From a virus (lineage: Duplodnaviria > Caudoviricetes): a stretch of DNA of 64,000 nucleotides. The notes under the pieces are model-generated. The model was given only the letters and a program-made list of their open reading frames with translations, was not told the DNA's origin and did no database searches. Position numbers and translations under genes: made by a program. Location of the stretch: the IMG/VR virus record IMGVR_UViG_3300011560_000001, positions 1-64,000 of that record; one strand, given 5' to 3'. Shown one piece after another: positions 11,965 to 56,956 of this stretch (positions are counted from its first letter, which is position 1; each line of letters starts with the position of its first letter).

Positions 11965-11973
11965 CAACATATT

Positions 11974-12005
11974 CCCTCCTCCTTCCCTGATGGGTTGGAG
12001 GAGGG
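11974..12005. terminator. 32-nt hairpin family copy 1 (convergent gene junction)
   Basis: CCCTCCTCC-TT-CCC-TGAT-GGG-TT-GGAGGAGGG flanked by CATA and TATG. Confidence 0.75.
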
Positions 12006-12026
12006 TTATGCTCATGCTATTTTGTT

Positions 12027-22953: not shown

Positions 22954-22963
22954 TCACCATATC

Positions 22964-22995
22964 CCTTCCTCCTTCCCTTACGGGTTGGAGGAAGG
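22964..22995. terminator. 32-nt hairpin family copy 3
   Basis: CCTTCCTCC-TT-CCC-TTAC-GGG-TT-GGAGGAAGG flanked by CATA and TTTTATG. Confidence 0.75.
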
Positions 22996-23102
22996 TTTTA
23001 TGGCGTTGGTATCCGGTTATCTTTTGACTTCTGAATCAACGGTTCAGAAGGTAAATGGCGGACATGATCACCCGCCAAGATTTTCCTACGTAGGAGTCCC
23101 AA

Positions 23103-28893: not shown

Positions 28894-28908
28894 TCCGTAC
28901 GCATAAAC

Positions 28909-28935
28909 AGCCCGCCCTTCGGGGTGGGCTTTATG
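28909..28935 (+). terminator. cUUCGg hairpin terminator
   Basis: AGCCCGCCC-TTCG-GGGTGGGCT then TTATG, with CATA upstream. Confidence 0.75.
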
Positions 28936-38864: not shown

Positions 38865-39013
38865 CGTAGGGAAAAGTTATGCGGCATTTTTAGTGTTGTA
38901 TCACAACCTCAATAACGGTAAGTGTTTACTGATACTATAGTGGCGCATGCACGCGTGTACGCTATGGTCTATCGACCGACTTATATAAGTTAATTCTGTA
39001 AAGGATACTTTCA

Positions 39014-41236
39014 ATGAATGATAAAACCCTTCTTAGCCAACAGGTCGCGGCCACTCGCCAGTTCCTGACCGCTAATGGTAGCAAACCAGCAGACAAAGGT
39101 CTGGAGAACACCTTCCTGTCTATGGAATCTGCTTCTAAGGTTGATTTCAAATCCATGGACAAACTGGTTAACGATATGGATGTTAAGAGCTTCAGCAGCG
39201 ACATCCGTAAAGCAGAAGAACCGGTTCTGTCCATGCTGGGCTTCGAAACCACCACTCCGGAAGAGAAGCAGCGTATTGAAGAACAGTTGTTCACCATGAA
39301 CGCACAGCAGGCTCGTGCAGCAGCATTGATCATGCTGGCTCATGGCAACCCGGTAGAATATGCTAAACAAGCACGTTCCATGAACATCAGCACCACTCCG
39401 TCTGGCCGTGAAGTTGACAGCTCTAACTTCGTCATGATGGCTGCTGATTCCTGCGGTTGCGAATCTGAAGAACTGGTTCAGCTGTCCTACGACCAGAAAG
39501 AACTGCGTGACATGATGCCGTACTCCGTTGTGTTCAACGTGAAGGCTTCTCGTCTGAGCCGCATGGGTAACGAACTGTACAACACCATCGTTCTGGCTCC
39601 GAACCAGATCGGTTATGACGTATCTTTCCGTCGTCCGCTGGTGTTCAACCACCTGCGCCGTAACGCTGACGGTACTCCGGCTGATTGGGTACGTCGTCCG
39701 CTGCTGGATGCGTTCATGTACAACGACGTTCTGTCCAATGACGTGACCGATCTGCATCCGATCTATCGTGCTGACGATGCTAACGCGCAGTACTTCGTTG
39801 ACAAAACTATCGTTGCTCCGCGTGACATCGAGATCAAAGGTGTAACTTACAAAACGTCTTACCTGGCTGTTGATAAACTGATCGACATGATCGGTATCGC
39901 TGAAGACGATAGCATTCTGGCTAACGGTTACAGCGACAACACCGATGCGCTGGATGCTCAGATCACGCTGACCAAAATCCTGGTGGAAATCAAATCCGCT
40001 AAGCACAGCAAGACCTCTTACGTTCCGTTCGACGTATCCGGTCTGATTACCAACGGTTTCCAGAAATCCCTGGAAGGCGACTTCCGCAAAATGACCCTGG
40101 CGTTCGACACCCACTCCATCTTCGTTGATGAGAACACTGTTGACGTTAAAGGTGCGAAAGCTGAAGCGCTGCAAGACATCATCGATGCGAAATCTGCTGC
40201 TCAGCTGGCTATCGAAGTTTACGGTTCTTCCAACGTAGAGAAAGCAGGTCTGCGTGTTAACGGTGCTAACGCTGAACTGTATCGCCTGGTTGATCAGGAC
40301 AACATCGAACAGCCGCGTAAGAGCCAAGAATTTAAAGACCTGGCTGACGACCTGAGCTTCAAACTGGTTGGTTACGAACTGCGTATCCGCCGTAACAACA
40401 GCAACCGTCGTGAACGTGGTAAGCACCTTGACTTCAACATGAAGCAAGAGCGTTACGCAATCGGCCTGCTGGCTCCGTTCTCTATTCCTCGTCCGCTGGA
40501 TTGGGAAGAAAACGCTGCTGACCTGGACGTTCTGATCCAAGCTGCTAACGCACGTTTCGACAACCTGATGGTTGAGAAACTGTTCAGCTACAAAGATGCA
40601 CTGAAAGCGGTTGCGACCTCTCGCTTCCGTCAGTTCGGTGACATCCAGATCGAAGGTTTCGGTCGTTACCTGATTCGTCCGTGGTTCGAAGAAATCAATC
40701 TGGACCTGGCGAAATCTGTTCAGGGTACCACCACTGCAGAACGTCGTGCTGAAGTGTCCGCTGCGATCATGAACGTGATTCGTGAGATGGCATACCGCAT
40801 GTACTCCGAGTCTGGTTATCAGCCAGCTCTGCAGCTGCTGTCTTCCAACGCTGATGAGAAACCGCGTTGCGTGGTAGCGACCGACAACTACATCCCGCAG
40901 TTCCTGCAGACCGATGGTGATTTCCGTACCGTTGGTGTAAGCTTCAACTTCGTGGTTGTAGATAACCCGAACGTCCTGCTGCGTGATAAGATCTTCGTGA
41001 CCCTGTCTCGTGGTATCCAGGGTTCTCCGGATCCGCTGACCTTCGGTATGTTCCTGTACGTACCGGAACTGGTATCTGTTGCTCAGGTTACCCGTAACGG
41101 TCAGGTTTCTAAAGAAACCATGGTTCAGCCTCGCTGCCGCTTCGTTAACAACTGCCCGCTGCTGGGTCTGATTAACGTTGTGAACCTGCGTAAGGTCTAC
41201 ACCGAAAACATCAAGCTGCCGGTTCAGACTAACTGA
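39014..41236 (+). CDS. major capsid protein (phiKZ gp120-like, 740 aa precursor)
   Basis: Strongest codon bias in the window; SME|S propeptide site; NSNRRERG and ETMVQPR..FVNNCPLLG motifs typical of phiKZ-type MCPs; synteny helicase-MCP-nvRNAP. Confidence 0.92.
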   Translation: MNDKTLLSQQVAATRQFLTANGSKPADKGLENTFLSMESASKVDFKSMDKLVNDMDVKSFSSDIRKAEEPVLSMLGFETTTPEEKQRIEEQLFTMNAQQARAAALIMLAHGNPVEYAKQARSMNISTTPSGREVDSSNFVMMAADSCGCESEELVQLSYDQKELRDMMPYSVVFNVKASRLSRMGNELYNTIVLAPNQIGYDVSFRRPLVFNHLRRNADGTPADWVRRPLLDAFMYNDVLSNDVTDLHPIYRADDANAQYFVDKTIVAPRDIEIKGVTYKTSYLAVDKLIDMIGIAEDDSILANGYSDNTDALDAQITLTKILVEIKSAKHSKTSYVPFDVSGLITNGFQKSLEGDFRKMTLAFDTHSIFVDENTVDVKGAKAEALQDIIDAKSAAQLAIEVYGSSNVEKAGLRVNGANAELYRLVDQDNIEQPRKSQEFKDLADDLSFKLVGYELRIRRNNSNRRERGKHLDFNMKQERYAIGLLAPFSIPRPLDWEENAADLDVLIQAANARFDNLMVEKLFSYKDALKAVATSRFRQFGDIQIEGFGRYLIRPWFEEINLDLAKSVQGTTTAERRAEVSAAIMNVIREMAYRMYSESGYQPALQLLSSNADEKPRCVVATDNYIPQFLQTDGDFRTVGVSFNFVVVDNPNVLLRDKIFVTLSRGIQGSPDPLTFGMFLYVPELVSVAQVTRNGQVSKETMVQPRCRFVNNCPLLGLINVVNLRKVYTENIKLPVQTN

Positions 41237-41323
41237 ACTACCGTAGCTGCTTCGTTGGATGATATTCTTGATGACAACGTTGCGGATGGTTTCATTGCAC
41301 CGGACATTCATCCGGCACCGTGA
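41234..41323 (+). other. probable stop-codon read-through extension of the MCP (X-TTVAASLDDILDDNVADGFIAPDIHPAP*)
   Basis: 28 in-frame sense codons between TGA 41234-36 and TGA 41321-23; the terminator follows the second stop; peptide motif shared with baseplate proteins. Confidence 0.65.
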
Positions 41324-41333
41324 TACATAAGTC

Positions 41334-41367
41334 AGCCTCCCTCAGCCCGTAAGGGTTGGGGGAGGTT
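41334..41367 (+). terminator. hairpin family copy 6 (variant with a fully paired stem and GTAA loop)
   Basis: AGCCTCCCTCAGCCC-GTAA-GGGTTGGGGGAGGTT flanked by CATA and TCTATG. Confidence 0.75.
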
Positions 41368-41408
41368 TCTATGCCGTTTATCGTTGCGAATAGAAAAAAT
41401 TTGACGCT

Positions 41409-41424
41409 TACATTACCTAGGTGA
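41409..41424 (+). promoter_or_regulatory. candidate phage (early-type) promoter, copy B
   Basis: TACATTACCTAGGTGA is identical to 34930-34945; lies upstream of the non-structural unit that includes the nvRNAP subunit. Confidence 0.6.
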
Positions 41425-47797: not shown

Positions 47798-47814
47798 GTT
47801 AAATAGCGCATAGC

Positions 47815-47848
47815 CCTTCTCCCCTTACCTTACGGGTTGGGGAGAAGG
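47815..47848. terminator. hairpin family copy 7 (convergent junction)
   Basis: CCTTCTCCCC-TT-ACC-TTAC-GGG-TT-GGGGAGAAGG flanked by CATA and TATG, T-tract downstream. Confidence 0.75.
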
Positions 47849-47877
47849 TTAACTATGTGTTATTTTTTTACATCCGT

Positions 47878-53226: not shown

Positions 53227-53285
53227 CGTGATAGTGCAGCAAATCGTAAAGTCTTTTTTAATTAATTCCTGGCGTGGAGGTCACC

Positions 53286-54221
53286 GTGAGTGATACGGTA
53301 ACAACTATTGACGACACCGAACTTTACCCGGTCGACGTCTCTTTACCCTCATCCGATCTCGTGTATGGTCTTATCAACCACGATAACCCACCTCAGAACG
53401 GAGAACATGTTCTAACCCCTGAATTATTGGTTTTAGGGACACCAACCACCAACCAAAGCGCCTACGAGCGCGATACCCAGATTACGGCAACGGCAACCGC
53501 TAAGCTTACCGAGTTAGACGATTATGAAGGTTCGACGACGCTGTATTACGATCGTATTAACATCGGTGCGTATCTACGTAACGTAGCACCTATTCTTATC
53601 GATGCGCCAGATGCCACCAAGATGCGTGATATCTGGCCTATCATCAAAGAACGTTTCGGTCTCGGCCTTACCGCAGAAGAAATTGTCAACGACGAACTTA
53701 ACTGGGATACCGTTAACGGACAATTGCTCCGTGTCGTATCTAATTGCCTGGCTTGGACGGGAAGTGTTCGTATCTTGATGAAATCGCGTGTACCGAATCT
53801 TGATGATATTATCGCGATCAAAGAGCTCGATGGTCTTAAGTTCTTCGGACAGGGCGTACGCGCTAGCGGTGAGATCTACAGTTACAGTCGTGATACTTCT
53901 GATTACGGTGAGTTGCTGGCTTCGCTGGTAACAGGTACGGTCATTAGCGATGTGGTGGTCGCCGATCTTCTGGCTGAAATGACCGCCAATCGTTGGGTAT
54001 TAGACGACAACATCGCACCGTATAACCTGTATAATGCTAAAGTGGCTTTCAACGGTGAGTTGGGTGGACGTATTCCAGCACGAGCAGGTTACCAATACGG
54101 TATCGAGATCAGTCTGGATGAAAACTACTGTACTGCTGTCGGCGGTCCATTGATTTTCTATTACAACGTCGACGGACATACCGCAAGCCTCCAGGGTCGT
54201 TCTCCAGAAGAACAAGGCTAA
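53286..54221 (+). CDS. baseplate/tail-fibre adaptor, phiKZ gp131-like paralog 1
   Basis: Y-D-R-I ... AWTGSV domain, LDDIIAIKELDGL linker, NLYNAKV C-terminal domain; GGAGG RBS before GTG. Confidence 0.65.
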   Translation: MSDTVTTIDDTELYPVDVSLPSSDLVYGLINHDNPPQNGEHVLTPELLVLGTPTTNQSAYERDTQITATATAKLTELDDYEGSTTLYYDRINIGAYLRNVAPILIDAPDATKMRDIWPIIKERFGLGLTAEEIVNDELNWDTVNGQLLRVVSNCLAWTGSVRILMKSRVPNLDDIIAIKELDGLKFFGQGVRASGEIYSYSRDTSDYGELLASLVTGTVISDVVVADLLAEMTANRWVLDDNIAPYNLYNAKVAFNGELGGRIPARAGYQYGIEISLDENYCTAVGGPLIFYYNVDGHTASLQGRSPEEQG

Positions 54222-54231
54222 GGAATAAACA

Positions 54232-55083
54232 ATGAGTCAGAAATTGTTAAACAAAAGTCCTAAAGTACTGGTCGCCGAACTTATTCAGGCCGCCAATCCT
54301 GACTTCGACTTTAACTTCGATGCGCTTGAGATCACGGATGCTGCTGAAAACGGAAACCACGCGTATAAACGGAACACCCGCGCTAAGGTATCGCCTTCGG
54401 CAACAGTAACGCCAGCACAATACCGTGAAAGCAGCTACGTGTGGTACGATCGTATTCCTATCCAAGACTTCTTCTTGGGAATGGAACCGAAGCTCGCTAT
54501 CGATGCCGGGGTTAAAACAACGCACGATCTTATCCCTCTGATCCAATCGACGTACGGAATCGTTATCGATCGGGATAGCTGCGTCGATTCTCCGATTGTT
54601 CGAGGGAATGAATACCCATTCCCTCATGTCGTAGAATTGAAAACAACCGGATTGGCTTGGACGGGAAGTGTTACATTCTACCTCCTCGATAGCGCACGCG
54701 ATATTGCGGGGATGATGAAGACCACGGCGATGGCCGGTCTCAATTTCCCGTACTACACCGCAAATCGTATCCAAGCGTTGGTCTACAGTTACGCTATAGA
54801 CTGCACAGCAATCCGTTCCGATCTTGCCGGGTTAAAGGTTGGTGGTAACCTAAGCGCAATGGTTAGCTTATTCAACAACGTTGCACCAACCCCATGGGTT
54901 TATAACGGCCGTGAAGACGAAAACAACCTTTACGGGGCTACCGTACTCGCAACCGGTAAAACAACAGAACTTATCGCACAGGGTTATCCTGTTAACCCCG
55001 CGTTCGCTAACGCTGTTATCGTTACGCTTAGCCAAGATTACTGCACGAACTACGGCGGTATCCTGTTGATGCAATATAACTGA
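54232..55083 (+). CDS. baseplate/tail-fibre adaptor, paralog 2
   Basis: YKRNT, WYDRI, AWTGSV, IAGMMKTTAMAGL and NLYGATV align with paralogs 1 and 3. Confidence 0.65.
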   Translation: MSQKLLNKSPKVLVAELIQAANPDFDFNFDALEITDAAENGNHAYKRNTRAKVSPSATVTPAQYRESSYVWYDRIPIQDFFLGMEPKLAIDAGVKTTHDLIPLIQSTYGIVIDRDSCVDSPIVRGNEYPFPHVVELKTTGLAWTGSVTFYLLDSARDIAGMMKTTAMAGLNFPYYTANRIQALVYSYAIDCTAIRSDLAGLKVGGNLSAMVSLFNNVAPTPWVYNGREDENNLYGATVLATGKTTELIAQGYPVNPAFANAVIVTLSQDYCTNYGGILLMQYN

Positions 55084-55099: not shown

Positions 55100-55984
55100 A
55101 TGGCTTCTACACAAATCCGTGCTACCGATCGTATCGTCCGTACGATTATCGGCGGTCAAGTACAAACGAACCTTACGCTCGGTCTTCCTCATGCGTGGGA
55201 AGAACACAGCACCTTGAACGAAAAGCTTCAGATTCAATCAAAGATTTACCCCGACGGTAATCCTGCTGTACGTTACTTCTGTATCGGCAACCAAGGTCAC
55301 GAATTCATCCGCAACGCTAACGGCATCCCTTCCTCGATGCCGATCGCTCACGAAGCAAGCGATCTTTCACCATGGAAAATCAAACCTTTCGTGATGCGTG
55401 AAGTTGGTAACGATTTGACCACGGACGAACGTGCTAGATTTGGGTTACGTCGTATTGAGACGCTGGAAAACGGTAAAAAATACATCTGTTATTACGGTCG
55501 TCGCATCGATTTCGATAACGTTGTCCGCTCCATGCGATATACCAAGTACATCGATGGTGTTGCTCAGACTATCGAATGGCATCCGACCGACAAGAACCTC
55601 AACCCACCCCGACCGGATATTCCAACAACAGGAATTCTGGTGGCGACCGGGGAGTATTACGATTATAGCTGTAAAGTCTCTTTGGTTTGGACACCATGGG
55701 ATATTAACGAATACCTCAATGTAGCTAAACTCACCGAGGGTGGTGAAGAGTACGCGGTTATTTCTGAAATTGGGATGGTCTCCGCCGGTGACAAAATCGT
55801 TCGTGCTGATGATGGTCAAGGTTCTGCCTTCGACATGAACGAAATCGTCGGTGCGCAGGTTACCGACCTGATTTCGACTTACCACAACCTATTTACCACC
55901 AACGATACGCTGACGTTGAAATACGACCTTGGTGCGTTGGAAGCTCGTAAGGCAGGCCCGACGGGCGCAGAAATCCTACCGTAA
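55100..55984 (+). CDS. conserved virion/baseplate protein
   Basis: HSTLNEK, YFCIGNQGH, PFVMR...DL and AVISEIG motifs of a conserved phiKZ-like structural family. Confidence 0.65.
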   Translation: MASTQIRATDRIVRTIIGGQVQTNLTLGLPHAWEEHSTLNEKLQIQSKIYPDGNPAVRYFCIGNQGHEFIRNANGIPSSMPIAHEASDLSPWKIKPFVMREVGNDLTTDERARFGLRRIETLENGKKYICYYGRRIDFDNVVRSMRYTKYIDGVAQTIEWHPTDKNLNPPRPDIPTTGILVATGEYYDYSCKVSLVWTPWDINEYLNVAKLTEGGEEYAVISEIGMVSAGDKIVRADDGQGSAFDMNEIVGAQVTDLISTYHNLFTTNDTLTLKYDLGALEARKAGPTGAEILP

Positions 55985-55999: not shown

Positions 56000-56905
56000 A
56001 TGGAGTACAGTGAAATCCTAGGGTTAGAATCGAAAGAAATCCTCTTTCGGCTGATTCGAAAGCATAGCGATTTCGATGCTCGAGGCGTAACGCTGGATAA
56101 ACTGGTTATCGGTGAGGCTTCTGAAAGCACAGGGTACAAGCGTAACAGCAAGTTAACCGTGCATCCCCAACCGGGTTCGGGGCTGGTGAACTCTGTCGAC
56201 ATCTATTATAACCGCGTCGATCTTGGTAAACTGGGTATTTGGCCTGGTGGACAGCACCGCTGGCCCATCGAGATCGAAACCTTAGATACACTAACCAAGG
56301 TCTCTGAGATATTACCTGTCTTAGCATCAACGTACGGTATCCTTCTCAATAAAACCGAGATCGTCGACGCGGATCTGGATAAATCCAAATCACCGATACA
56401 TGTTGCGATAACACCTAAACCTGGTAACCAAGTATGGGTTGGTCAATTACTTGTTGAGTTAACTTCAGGACATAACGACCTCAACAACCTCATTCGCAAC
56501 AATATGTTGGCTGGGTTGAATTATCTCATCGATCGAGATAGTGATAAACTCCCGGGCGCTATTGTTTCGTACAACTGGTTCATGTCTGATGATGTTCTAG
56601 CGTCACTTACTGATGGGTATACGTTAACCTCAGGTGATATGCAATCAGAAGCACTAATCGCAGAAATGAACATGCTGCAATTGGGTCTCTCTGAAGAGAT
56701 CGATGGTCTTACGGCCAACGATCGCTGGGTATTGTCGGCAACGCCTGGACCGCTCAACTTGCAGAATGCGAGAGTAATAGCCGATCCAGAGCATTTCAAA
56801 ACACTACCATTTGGTGTACGTACAGACGCTCGTAAAGCTGTTGTACTTCAACTCAGTGTGATGAATACGCTCATCGACGGTTATCTAACGTTATACGTGG
56901 CATAA
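56000..56905 (+). CDS. baseplate/tail-fibre adaptor, paralog 3
   Basis: YKRNS, YYNRV, VWVGQL, LNNLIRNNMLAGL and NLQNARV. Confidence 0.65.
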   Translation: MEYSEILGLESKEILFRLIRKHSDFDARGVTLDKLVIGEASESTGYKRNSKLTVHPQPGSGLVNSVDIYYNRVDLGKLGIWPGGQHRWPIEIETLDTLTKVSEILPVLASTYGILLNKTEIVDADLDKSKSPIHVAITPKPGNQVWVGQLLVELTSGHNDLNNLIRNNMLAGLNYLIDRDSDKLPGAIVSYNWFMSDDVLASLTDGYTLTSGDMQSEALIAEMNMLQLGLSEEIDGLTANDRWVLSATPGPLNLQNARVIADPEHFKTLPFGVRTDARKAVVLQLSVMNTLIDGYLTLYVA

Positions 56906-56914
56906 CAGCATATT

Positions 56915-56946
56915 CCCTCCTCCTTCCCTGATGGGTTGGAGGAGGG
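56915..56946. terminator. 32-nt hairpin family copy 8 (convergent junction)
   Basis: Identical to copy 1 over 43 nt, including the CATATT and TTATG flanks. Confidence 0.75.
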
Positions 56947-56956
56947 TTATGTTTGT

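Follow-up and report, generated by a model that had tools for sequence, protein, structure and literature searches.

In several phages, translation is recoded at the 3′ terminus of the capsid gene, which yields a minor, longer form of the capsid subunit. In Q-beta (Allolevivirus), a single-stranded RNA phage, the coat gene ends in a UGA that is read through at about 5%, giving the C-terminally extended minor capsid subunit A1 (PMC7026636), which is needed for infectious particles (PMC7026636, Table 1). In gene 10 of T7 and T3, Lactobacillus phage A2 and Listeria phages A118, A500 and PSA, the longer subunit arises by −1 or +1 frameshifting, often with addition of immunoglobulin-like domains (PMC5009743). 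In a literature search, we found no published description of stop-codon read-through in the capsid gene of a tailed phage. Here we analyzed the major capsid protein (MCP) gene in a 64,000-nucleotide stretch of DNA (hereafter the window), positions 1 to 64,000 of IMG/VR record IMGVR_UViG_3300011560_000001, which is part of a 237,533-bp genome of a Goslar-like chimallivirus with E. coli as host. From sequence comparisons, we consider it likely that low-level read-through of the UGA at the end of this gene gives a minority of MCP subunits a fiber-anchoring peptide.

The virion of phage Goslar provides the structural background (10.64898/2026.04.21.720040). Its hexons have six MCP C-terminal arms that make up a small β-barrel at the capsomer center, and its MCP, gp41, localizes like capsids when fused at the C terminus to green fluorescent protein (GFP). 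The virion also contains about 2,140 copies of gp23 and about 580 of gp22, both of the DUF7941 family; gp23 is unmodeled in the structure, and its copy number is close to that of MCP. DUF7941 proteins are predicted to join up in head-to-tail fashion, the disordered linker or tail of one protomer docking onto the N-terminal domain in the protomer after it, and purified gp22 forms filaments. Their anchoring is placed at the peripheral baseplate only, and the capsid is not mentioned as a site (10.64898/2026.04.21.720040). In phiKZ, the MCP arms form a central bundle in hexons, while the penton arms touch the outer-surface protein gp244 (PMC11297242).

The MCP region in the window shares 97% nucleotide identity with Goslar, and the protein is 99% identical to the solved Goslar gp41 chains (PDB 11bt/36za). 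It is a full-length match to PhiKZ_MCP (PF25620, E 1.6e-217, profile positions 2-635 of 635) and matches this family only, having no DUF7941 N-terminal globular domain. The genome has nine DUF7941 (PF25613) loci, none within MCP. The original prediction described a TGA-A stop, 28 further in-frame codons (41237-41320) and a second TGA at 41321-23, and the sequence bears this out. The open frame itself carries no weight as an argument: at least 28 open codons follow the stop in 28% of the 218 called genes, which end in TAA (160), TGA (47) or TAG (11). A bare open frame is thus not beyond chance, and any significance comes only from comparative evidence.

The first comparison is with close relatives. 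Both stops and an uninterrupted frame between them are present, with zero indels, in all eight Goslar-like genomes, namely the window, Goslar, one IMG/VR genome and five metagenomic genomes at 94-100% nucleotide identity. The adjoining spacer has at least five indels within about 140 nt in the same genomes. Ten of the 84 bases of the tail vary, falling on codon positions 1, 2 and 3 as 3, 2 and 5. Seven amino acid changes result, two in a short linker (T to N, V to G) and five in the motif described below, and these replacements are conservative, staying inside the range of variation of the gp23 tail. The other reading frames of the tail contain stops and are not conserved. A tblastn search of 50,697 phage records with the tail peptide found Goslar alone.

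Deeper relatives are scarce, as only two further MCP lineages above 50% identity were found in a large protein collection. The MCP on L005, a Logan contig, has an overall identity of 67%, which rises to 78% within the C-terminal 300 residues. Its gene ends with TGA, 20 in-frame codons, TAA and a hairpin. The alignment with the window is gapless in the MCP frame, with the TGA of L005 five codons further downstream; the TGA of the window aligns with a Ser codon in L005, and the TGA of L005 aligns with an Ala codon in the window. The 20 residues behind both stops give a BLOSUM62 score of 38, compared with −22 ± 12 for shuffled sequences (0 of 100,000 reaching it, fixed register). Nucleotide identities at codon positions 1, 2 and 3 are 10, 13 and 6 of 20, and the other two frames score −6 and −20. 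At the level of sequence, this pattern is a coding signature. Aligning the MCP 3′ ends of relatives, which the original prediction had proposed as a check, thus gives a gapless tail and both stops in the eight close genomes, and codon-position bias against the distant one. A search for further L005-like lineages found none.

The tail is not an arbitrary peptide. The gp23 homolog of this phage, 176 amino acids long, is encoded outside the window (G000 67289-67819, or L012:393-920; minus strand). The core of its C-terminal tail, D/N-N-V-A-D/E-G-F, is almost invariant in 34 homologs down to 40% identity. The MCP tail from 41252 onward reads DNVADGF, keeps the hydrophobic spacing of the gp23 tail and stops at the same end residue. 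When a matrix of gp23 tails was used to scan all six frames of the 237 kb, only two matches exceeded 8 bits, gp23 itself (64.4) and the MCP tail (16.9), and the next best score in the proteome was −3.3. The most divergent Goslar-like genome scores higher rather than lower by this matrix, as the L009 tail reaches 24 bits. A second matrix was built from eight DUF7941 linkers with MCP excluded. By this one, the MCP tail ranks first among 66,320 non-family 16-mers of the proteome with 11.06 bits (shuffle p 2.5e-4), and the L005 tail scores 8.75 bits (p 3.5e-4). Direct gapless alignment of the MCP tail with the tail of its own gp23, C-termini aligned, scores 35 (0 of 5000 shuffles).

The likeness is one of protein. 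The two tails share 37 of 72 nt (51%), which excludes a recent DNA duplication from gp23. A DNA pattern of the core motif had 42 matches across IMG/VR, among which the full motif fits Goslar-type loci only. The DUF7941 linker motif is not enriched in the C-terminal tails of 158 other MCP representatives, and faint L-x-G-L likenesses in some constitutive MCP tails are not significant. An AlphaFold2 monomer model of the gp23 homolog has a confident N-terminal domain and a tail with a predicted local distance difference test score of 72-84, and gives nothing decisive on docking.

Two observations concern the gp23 family itself. First, the gp23-like protein here is only 49-51% identical to those of Goslar and one IMG/VR genome, though the MCPs are 99% identical; phages that are nearly identical in other respects have swapped the gp23 N-terminal domain, and the motif of the C-terminal tail is constant. 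Second, the L005 tail (L005:5233-5292) has G-D-G where Goslar-type tails show D/A-D/N-N, and in the two most divergent gp23 homologs, P0199 and P0200, which come from other samples, the corresponding residues are G-D/N-G. This likeness hints at co-variation between sequences that are not linked to one genome.

Independent, parallel arrangements are found in other phages. The MCP genes of phiKZ and KTN4 end with TGA-G, 26 in-frame codons, TAA and a hairpin with CATA/TATG flanks. PhiPA3 keeps the phiKZ-type tail with one in-frame codon indel; the two tails match at 19, 21 and 12 of 26 codon positions 1, 2 and 3, with eight synonymous codon differences. In the Erwinia phage PhiEaH1, the MCP gene ends with TGA-A followed by 18 in-frame codons. 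The general plan, TGA, 18-30 codons, a second stop and a hairpin, is as in the window, although the tail peptide is unrelated (phiKZ) or distantly related (PhiEaH1) to the Goslar-type motif. These 3′ tail regions are unannotated in the public records of phiKZ, PhiPA3 and PhiEaH1. In all five TGA-ending MCP lineages sampled, 18-30 in-frame codons follow the stop, while only 0-10 do so in six TAA-ending MCPs surveyed.

Each tail resembles the DUF7941 protein of its own phage. In phiKZ, the MCP extension is built of the motif R-Y-L-E-N-G, which is likewise repeated at the C terminus of the short DUF7941 protein gp143; aligned without gaps and with matching C-termini, the two score 59 (0 of 5000 shuffles). 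The MCP tail of PhiEaH1 is identical at 8 of 18 aligned residues to the second motif copy in the tail of that phage's short DUF7941 protein, with a score of 39 (0 of 5000). In a 3 × 3 comparison of the window, phiKZ and PhiEaH1, each MCP tail scores best against the DUF7941 tail of its own phage, the diagonal being 35, 59 and 39 and the off-diagonal values lying from −4 to 28. Incidentally, the tail of the short DUF7941 protein of PhiEaH1 (L077:1432-1611, minus strand) carries two docking-motif copies in tandem. The likeness to the DUF7941 filament proteins (Goslar gp22 and gp23; phiKZ gp126, gp127 and gp143) thus lies in the conserved terminal peptide of gp23. MCP differs from them in that it would present this handle only, from the capsomer center, as a mimic rather than a family member.

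The position of the terminator also fits the second stop. Near-identical GC-rich hairpins with CATA as left flank and TATG as right flank occur in 15 copies genome-wide, 11 of which start 0-11 nt past the upstream stop. In the window, this distance is 3-11 nt for the five other copies. For the MCP hairpin, it is 89 nt when counted from the first TGA but only 2 nt from the second. The point about spacing in the original prediction therefore holds, and its distances of about 100 and 10 nt were only approximate. A hairpin also lies behind the second stop in L005, phiKZ and PhiPA3. The same hairpin design is found 3′ of the MCP gene in L004, L005, phiKZ and PhiPA3, and such hairpins often sit between convergent genes. 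The features are collected in Table 1.

Table 1. Coordinates of the MCP gene end, its hairpin family and possible partner genes in the window
Feature	Position	Strand	Details
MCP gene, Goslar gp41 ortholog	39014..41233	+	740 codons; open reading frame to 41236; frequency of optimal codons 0.73
First stop, TGA then A (proposed leaky stop)	41234..41236	+	gene end ACT AAC TGA
Variable linker, five codons, of the proposed read-through tail	41237..41251	+	clade alignment
Docking-tail copy of 23 codons, as at the C terminus of gp23-type (short DUF7941) proteins, core DNVADGF	41252..41320	+	
Second stop TGA, end of the proposed read-through product	41321..41323	+	invariant, 8 genomes
Terminator-type GC-rich hairpin, CATA/TATG flanks	41326-41373	.	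−30.2 kcal/mol; 2 nt past second stop
CATA/TATG hairpins in the window	11968-12010, 22958-23002, 28902-28935, 41326-41373, 47809-47857, 56909-56951		
DUF7941 paralog with linker motif; N-terminal domain a possible MCP-tail acceptor	53274..54221	+	PF25613, E 5e-63
DUF7941 paralog, possible acceptor	54232..55083	+	PF25613, E 8e-47
DUF7941 paralog, possible acceptor	56000..56905	+	PF25613, E 4e-53

How could the tail be translated? A suppressor tRNA of the phage or a change of the genetic code was rejected, as no tRNA gene was found in the whole 237,533-bp genome and TGA ends 47 of the 218 called genes. A frameshift extension of the T7 10B type was also rejected because the tail lies in the zero frame, and the zero-frame relation to MCP is kept across the moved stop of L005 and the in-frame indel of PhiPA3. 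Having no start codon served by a ribosome-binding site, no phage tRNA and a conserved zero frame, the tail would be reached most simply by UGA read-through with a near-cognate tRNA of the host, the TGA probably being decoded as Trp.

The tail might instead be made as a free small peptide, by re-initiation after termination or from an internal start, and in soluble form compete for, or cap, the N-terminal domains of DUF7941 proteins. The tail has no ATG or GTG, and its single TTG (41255, codon 7) is the candidate start; a free docking peptide could in principle regulate polymerization. However, no Shine-Dalgarno sequence was found upstream of this TTG, and the codon is not conserved in register, being CTG in L005. 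Moreover, a separate reading frame would need neither the gapless MCP frame across the moved stop nor the in-frame indel of PhiPA3. We regard the free peptide as the least probable of the explanations considered.

Another possibility is that the segment works as RNA, as a hairpin or a processing or stability signal in the 3′ untranslated region, and that the peptide likeness is a by-product, for example of an old gene conversion from gp23. A long imperfect hairpin can indeed be drawn from the stop codon in all eight genomes, with −15.5 to −18.7 kcal/mol. Its fold is weak (z-score −1.8), its stem is broken by substitutions in L009 and L011 without compensation, and L005 folds differently. Conservation tracks codon positions (2 > 1 > 3) and amino acid similarity, not nucleotides, and the DNA identity to the gp23 tail, at 51%, also counts against this reading. 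We judge a non-coding element very improbable.

Codon usage bears on whether the tail is a decaying remnant. In that scenario, an ancestral constitutive tail was cut off by independent nonsense mutations in the Goslar-like and L005 lineages, and the 84 bases are now an untranslated 3′ region. Some distant MCPs do have constitutive C-terminal tails, a sister clade has lost the tail, and omega within the Goslar-like clade is ~0.6, not clearly below 1. On the other hand, the frequency of optimal codons drops from 0.73 in MCP to 0.43 in the tail, close to the genome median of 0.42 (P 7e-4). Such an ordinary value argues against a recently truncated constitutive tail, as translation at the level of MCP has not been recent, and it is what one would expect if the stop had for long been effective in most cases, with low translation past it. 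Decay would also require parallel TGA truncations with frames intact in five lineages, each tail matching its own DUF7941 tail. No indel or stop has entered the tail in the eight genomes. When seven substitutions were introduced by random drift, the motif score was kept in 8% of trials starting from the window tail, and 27% of trials starting from the L009 tail kept the score without a stop. We therefore judge decay improbable.

Several points weigh against read-through of a functional tail. Within the Goslar-like clade, the tail omega of ~0.6 (~4 synonymous and 7 non-synonymous events) is weakly below neutral and far from the ~0.04 of MCP; at codon positions 1 and 2 together, five sites vary against an expectation of 10.6 (P about 0.05). 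A sister clade of 22 MCP variants ends with TAA and lacks the tail, its hairpin lying 26-29 nt past TAA and its in-frame stretch reading as 3-9 codons, which makes the tail dispensable there. A maximum-likelihood tree joins the two tail-bearing lineages as sisters (98/98) and leaves the tail-less clade outside. The base after UGA varies among lineages (A, U, G, G, A) and gives no sign of a stimulatory context common to them; the UGA-A context cited in the original prediction is not conserved, other lineages having UGA-U and UGA-G. The stop-codon hairpin is weak and has no support from covariation. The Goslar hexon model is ordered to residue 740 in a six-stranded barrel, with no extra density reported, and the preprint of the structure makes no mention of read-through (10.64898/2026.04.21.720040).

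The last residue before TGA is Pro in four of the five lineages, the exception being the lineage of the window. A C-terminal Pro slows termination in E. coli.

Weighing these, we find programmed UGA read-through of MCP, as originally predicted, supported by the comparative evidence, while translation past 41236 and its level are what we infer from it. Two of the features of the Q-beta case are present, a conserved UGA stop and a zero-frame extension conserved as protein, with weak constraint within the clade. The differences are plain: the coat of Q-beta is folded differently and is extended by an entire domain, whereas the window belongs to a 237-kb double-stranded DNA phage with an HK97-fold MCP, and the extension is a 29-residue linear peptide copying the docking tail of another virion protein. 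The frameshifting capsid genes of T7/T3, A2 and the Listeria phages differ in leaving the zero frame (PMC5009743).

We propose the following course. A small share of host ribosomes would read through the UGA at the MCP end, presumably with tRNA-Trp, so that a minority among the 1,615 capsid subunits would gain one residue at the stop and a further 28 behind it. Read-through of 0.5-5% would give about 8-80 tailed subunits per head. The added tail would consist of a short linker and a 23-residue copy of the conserved C-terminal tail of an abundant short DUF7941 protein. It contains neither Lys nor Arg, and the last tryptic peptide of the read-through product would extend over 35 residues from the Leu encoded at 41216. 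Because it copies the docking peptide of gp23, the read-through MCP would offer the same handle at the capsomer center, and we infer that this handle could bind the N-terminal domain of a DUF7941 protein. Thereby the tailed MCP would anchor or nucleate DUF7941 filaments on the head. Since six C-termini meet at each hexon center, the stop would keep the handle sub-stoichiometric; six tails with partners at full occupancy would probably clash, which would explain why the stop is retained.

Read-through could also be real with the tail serving another role than an external fiber anchor. It might recruit a gp23-like protein during head assembly or to the head interior, cap or restrict DUF7941 polymerization, or dock heads to some other structure of the infected cell. 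The abundance of gp23 (~2,140 copies per virion), near that of MCP, together with its absence from the model, would suit such a role. However, the tail ends flush with that of gp23, whose only described role is head-to-tail docking, and the MCP C-terminal arm of phiKZ contacts an outer-surface protein. Given the arms at the capsomer center, the gp244 contact in phiKZ and the GFP fusion, an outward tail is plausible. We hold these other roles to be unlikely and prefer anchoring of fibers on the outside of the head.

The three DUF7941 paralogs of Table 1 flank a gene for a DUF7208 protein (55100-55984), a homolog of the baseplate spoke protein Goslar gp32/phiKZ gp139. The linker matrix matches this protein near its C terminus, at residues 260-275, with 9.7 bits, the third-best non-family score. 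By its sequence, this motif may be the baseplate's own docking handle.

Two further elements lie at the MCP gene. An antisense open reading frame of 766 codons (39011-41311, minus strand) exceeds the MCP gene in length and keeps to its codon register. It had been cited as a sign of coding past the stop; the frame exists but is uninformative, as it merely reflects the absence of three rare codons. We rejected it as coding evidence because its codon boundaries coincide with those of the MCP frame, so that third-position changes of close relatives become first-position changes in it. The frame arises as a by-product from the extreme codon bias of MCP and is a trap for length-based gene callers. 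The other element is a block at 41409-41424, ~40 nt past the MCP terminator, that is conserved at the matching place in L004, L005, L015 and L016, even in relatives with MCPs of 67-71% overall identity, where the spacer around it cannot be aligned. This block probably serves the following transcription unit as promoter.

If the proposal is true, stop-codon read-through would be a structural device in the capsid gene of a tailed double-stranded DNA phage, and an unannotated product would be added to Goslar, phiKZ and PhiPA3. Extra low-occupancy features would be predicted at hexon centers. It would also answer where more than 2,500 DUF7941 proteins per virion attach, an open point in the preprint; six baseplate sites alone imply filaments of nearly 3 microns. 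A simple handle for display of cargo on jumbo-phage heads would become available. More tentatively, and with somewhat less conviction than doubt, we extend the proposal to chimalliviruses in general: a leaky UGA may give a set fraction of capsid subunits a DUF7941 docking peptide, such that the ‘fiber cloud’, for which a part in host recognition has been proposed, is anchored on the head at hexon centers and not only at the six baseplate sites, with the leakiness setting the number of fibers per head. As the peptide co-varies with the DUF7941 tail of its own phage, this would be a self-matching attachment of fiber to capsid, maintained by recoding.

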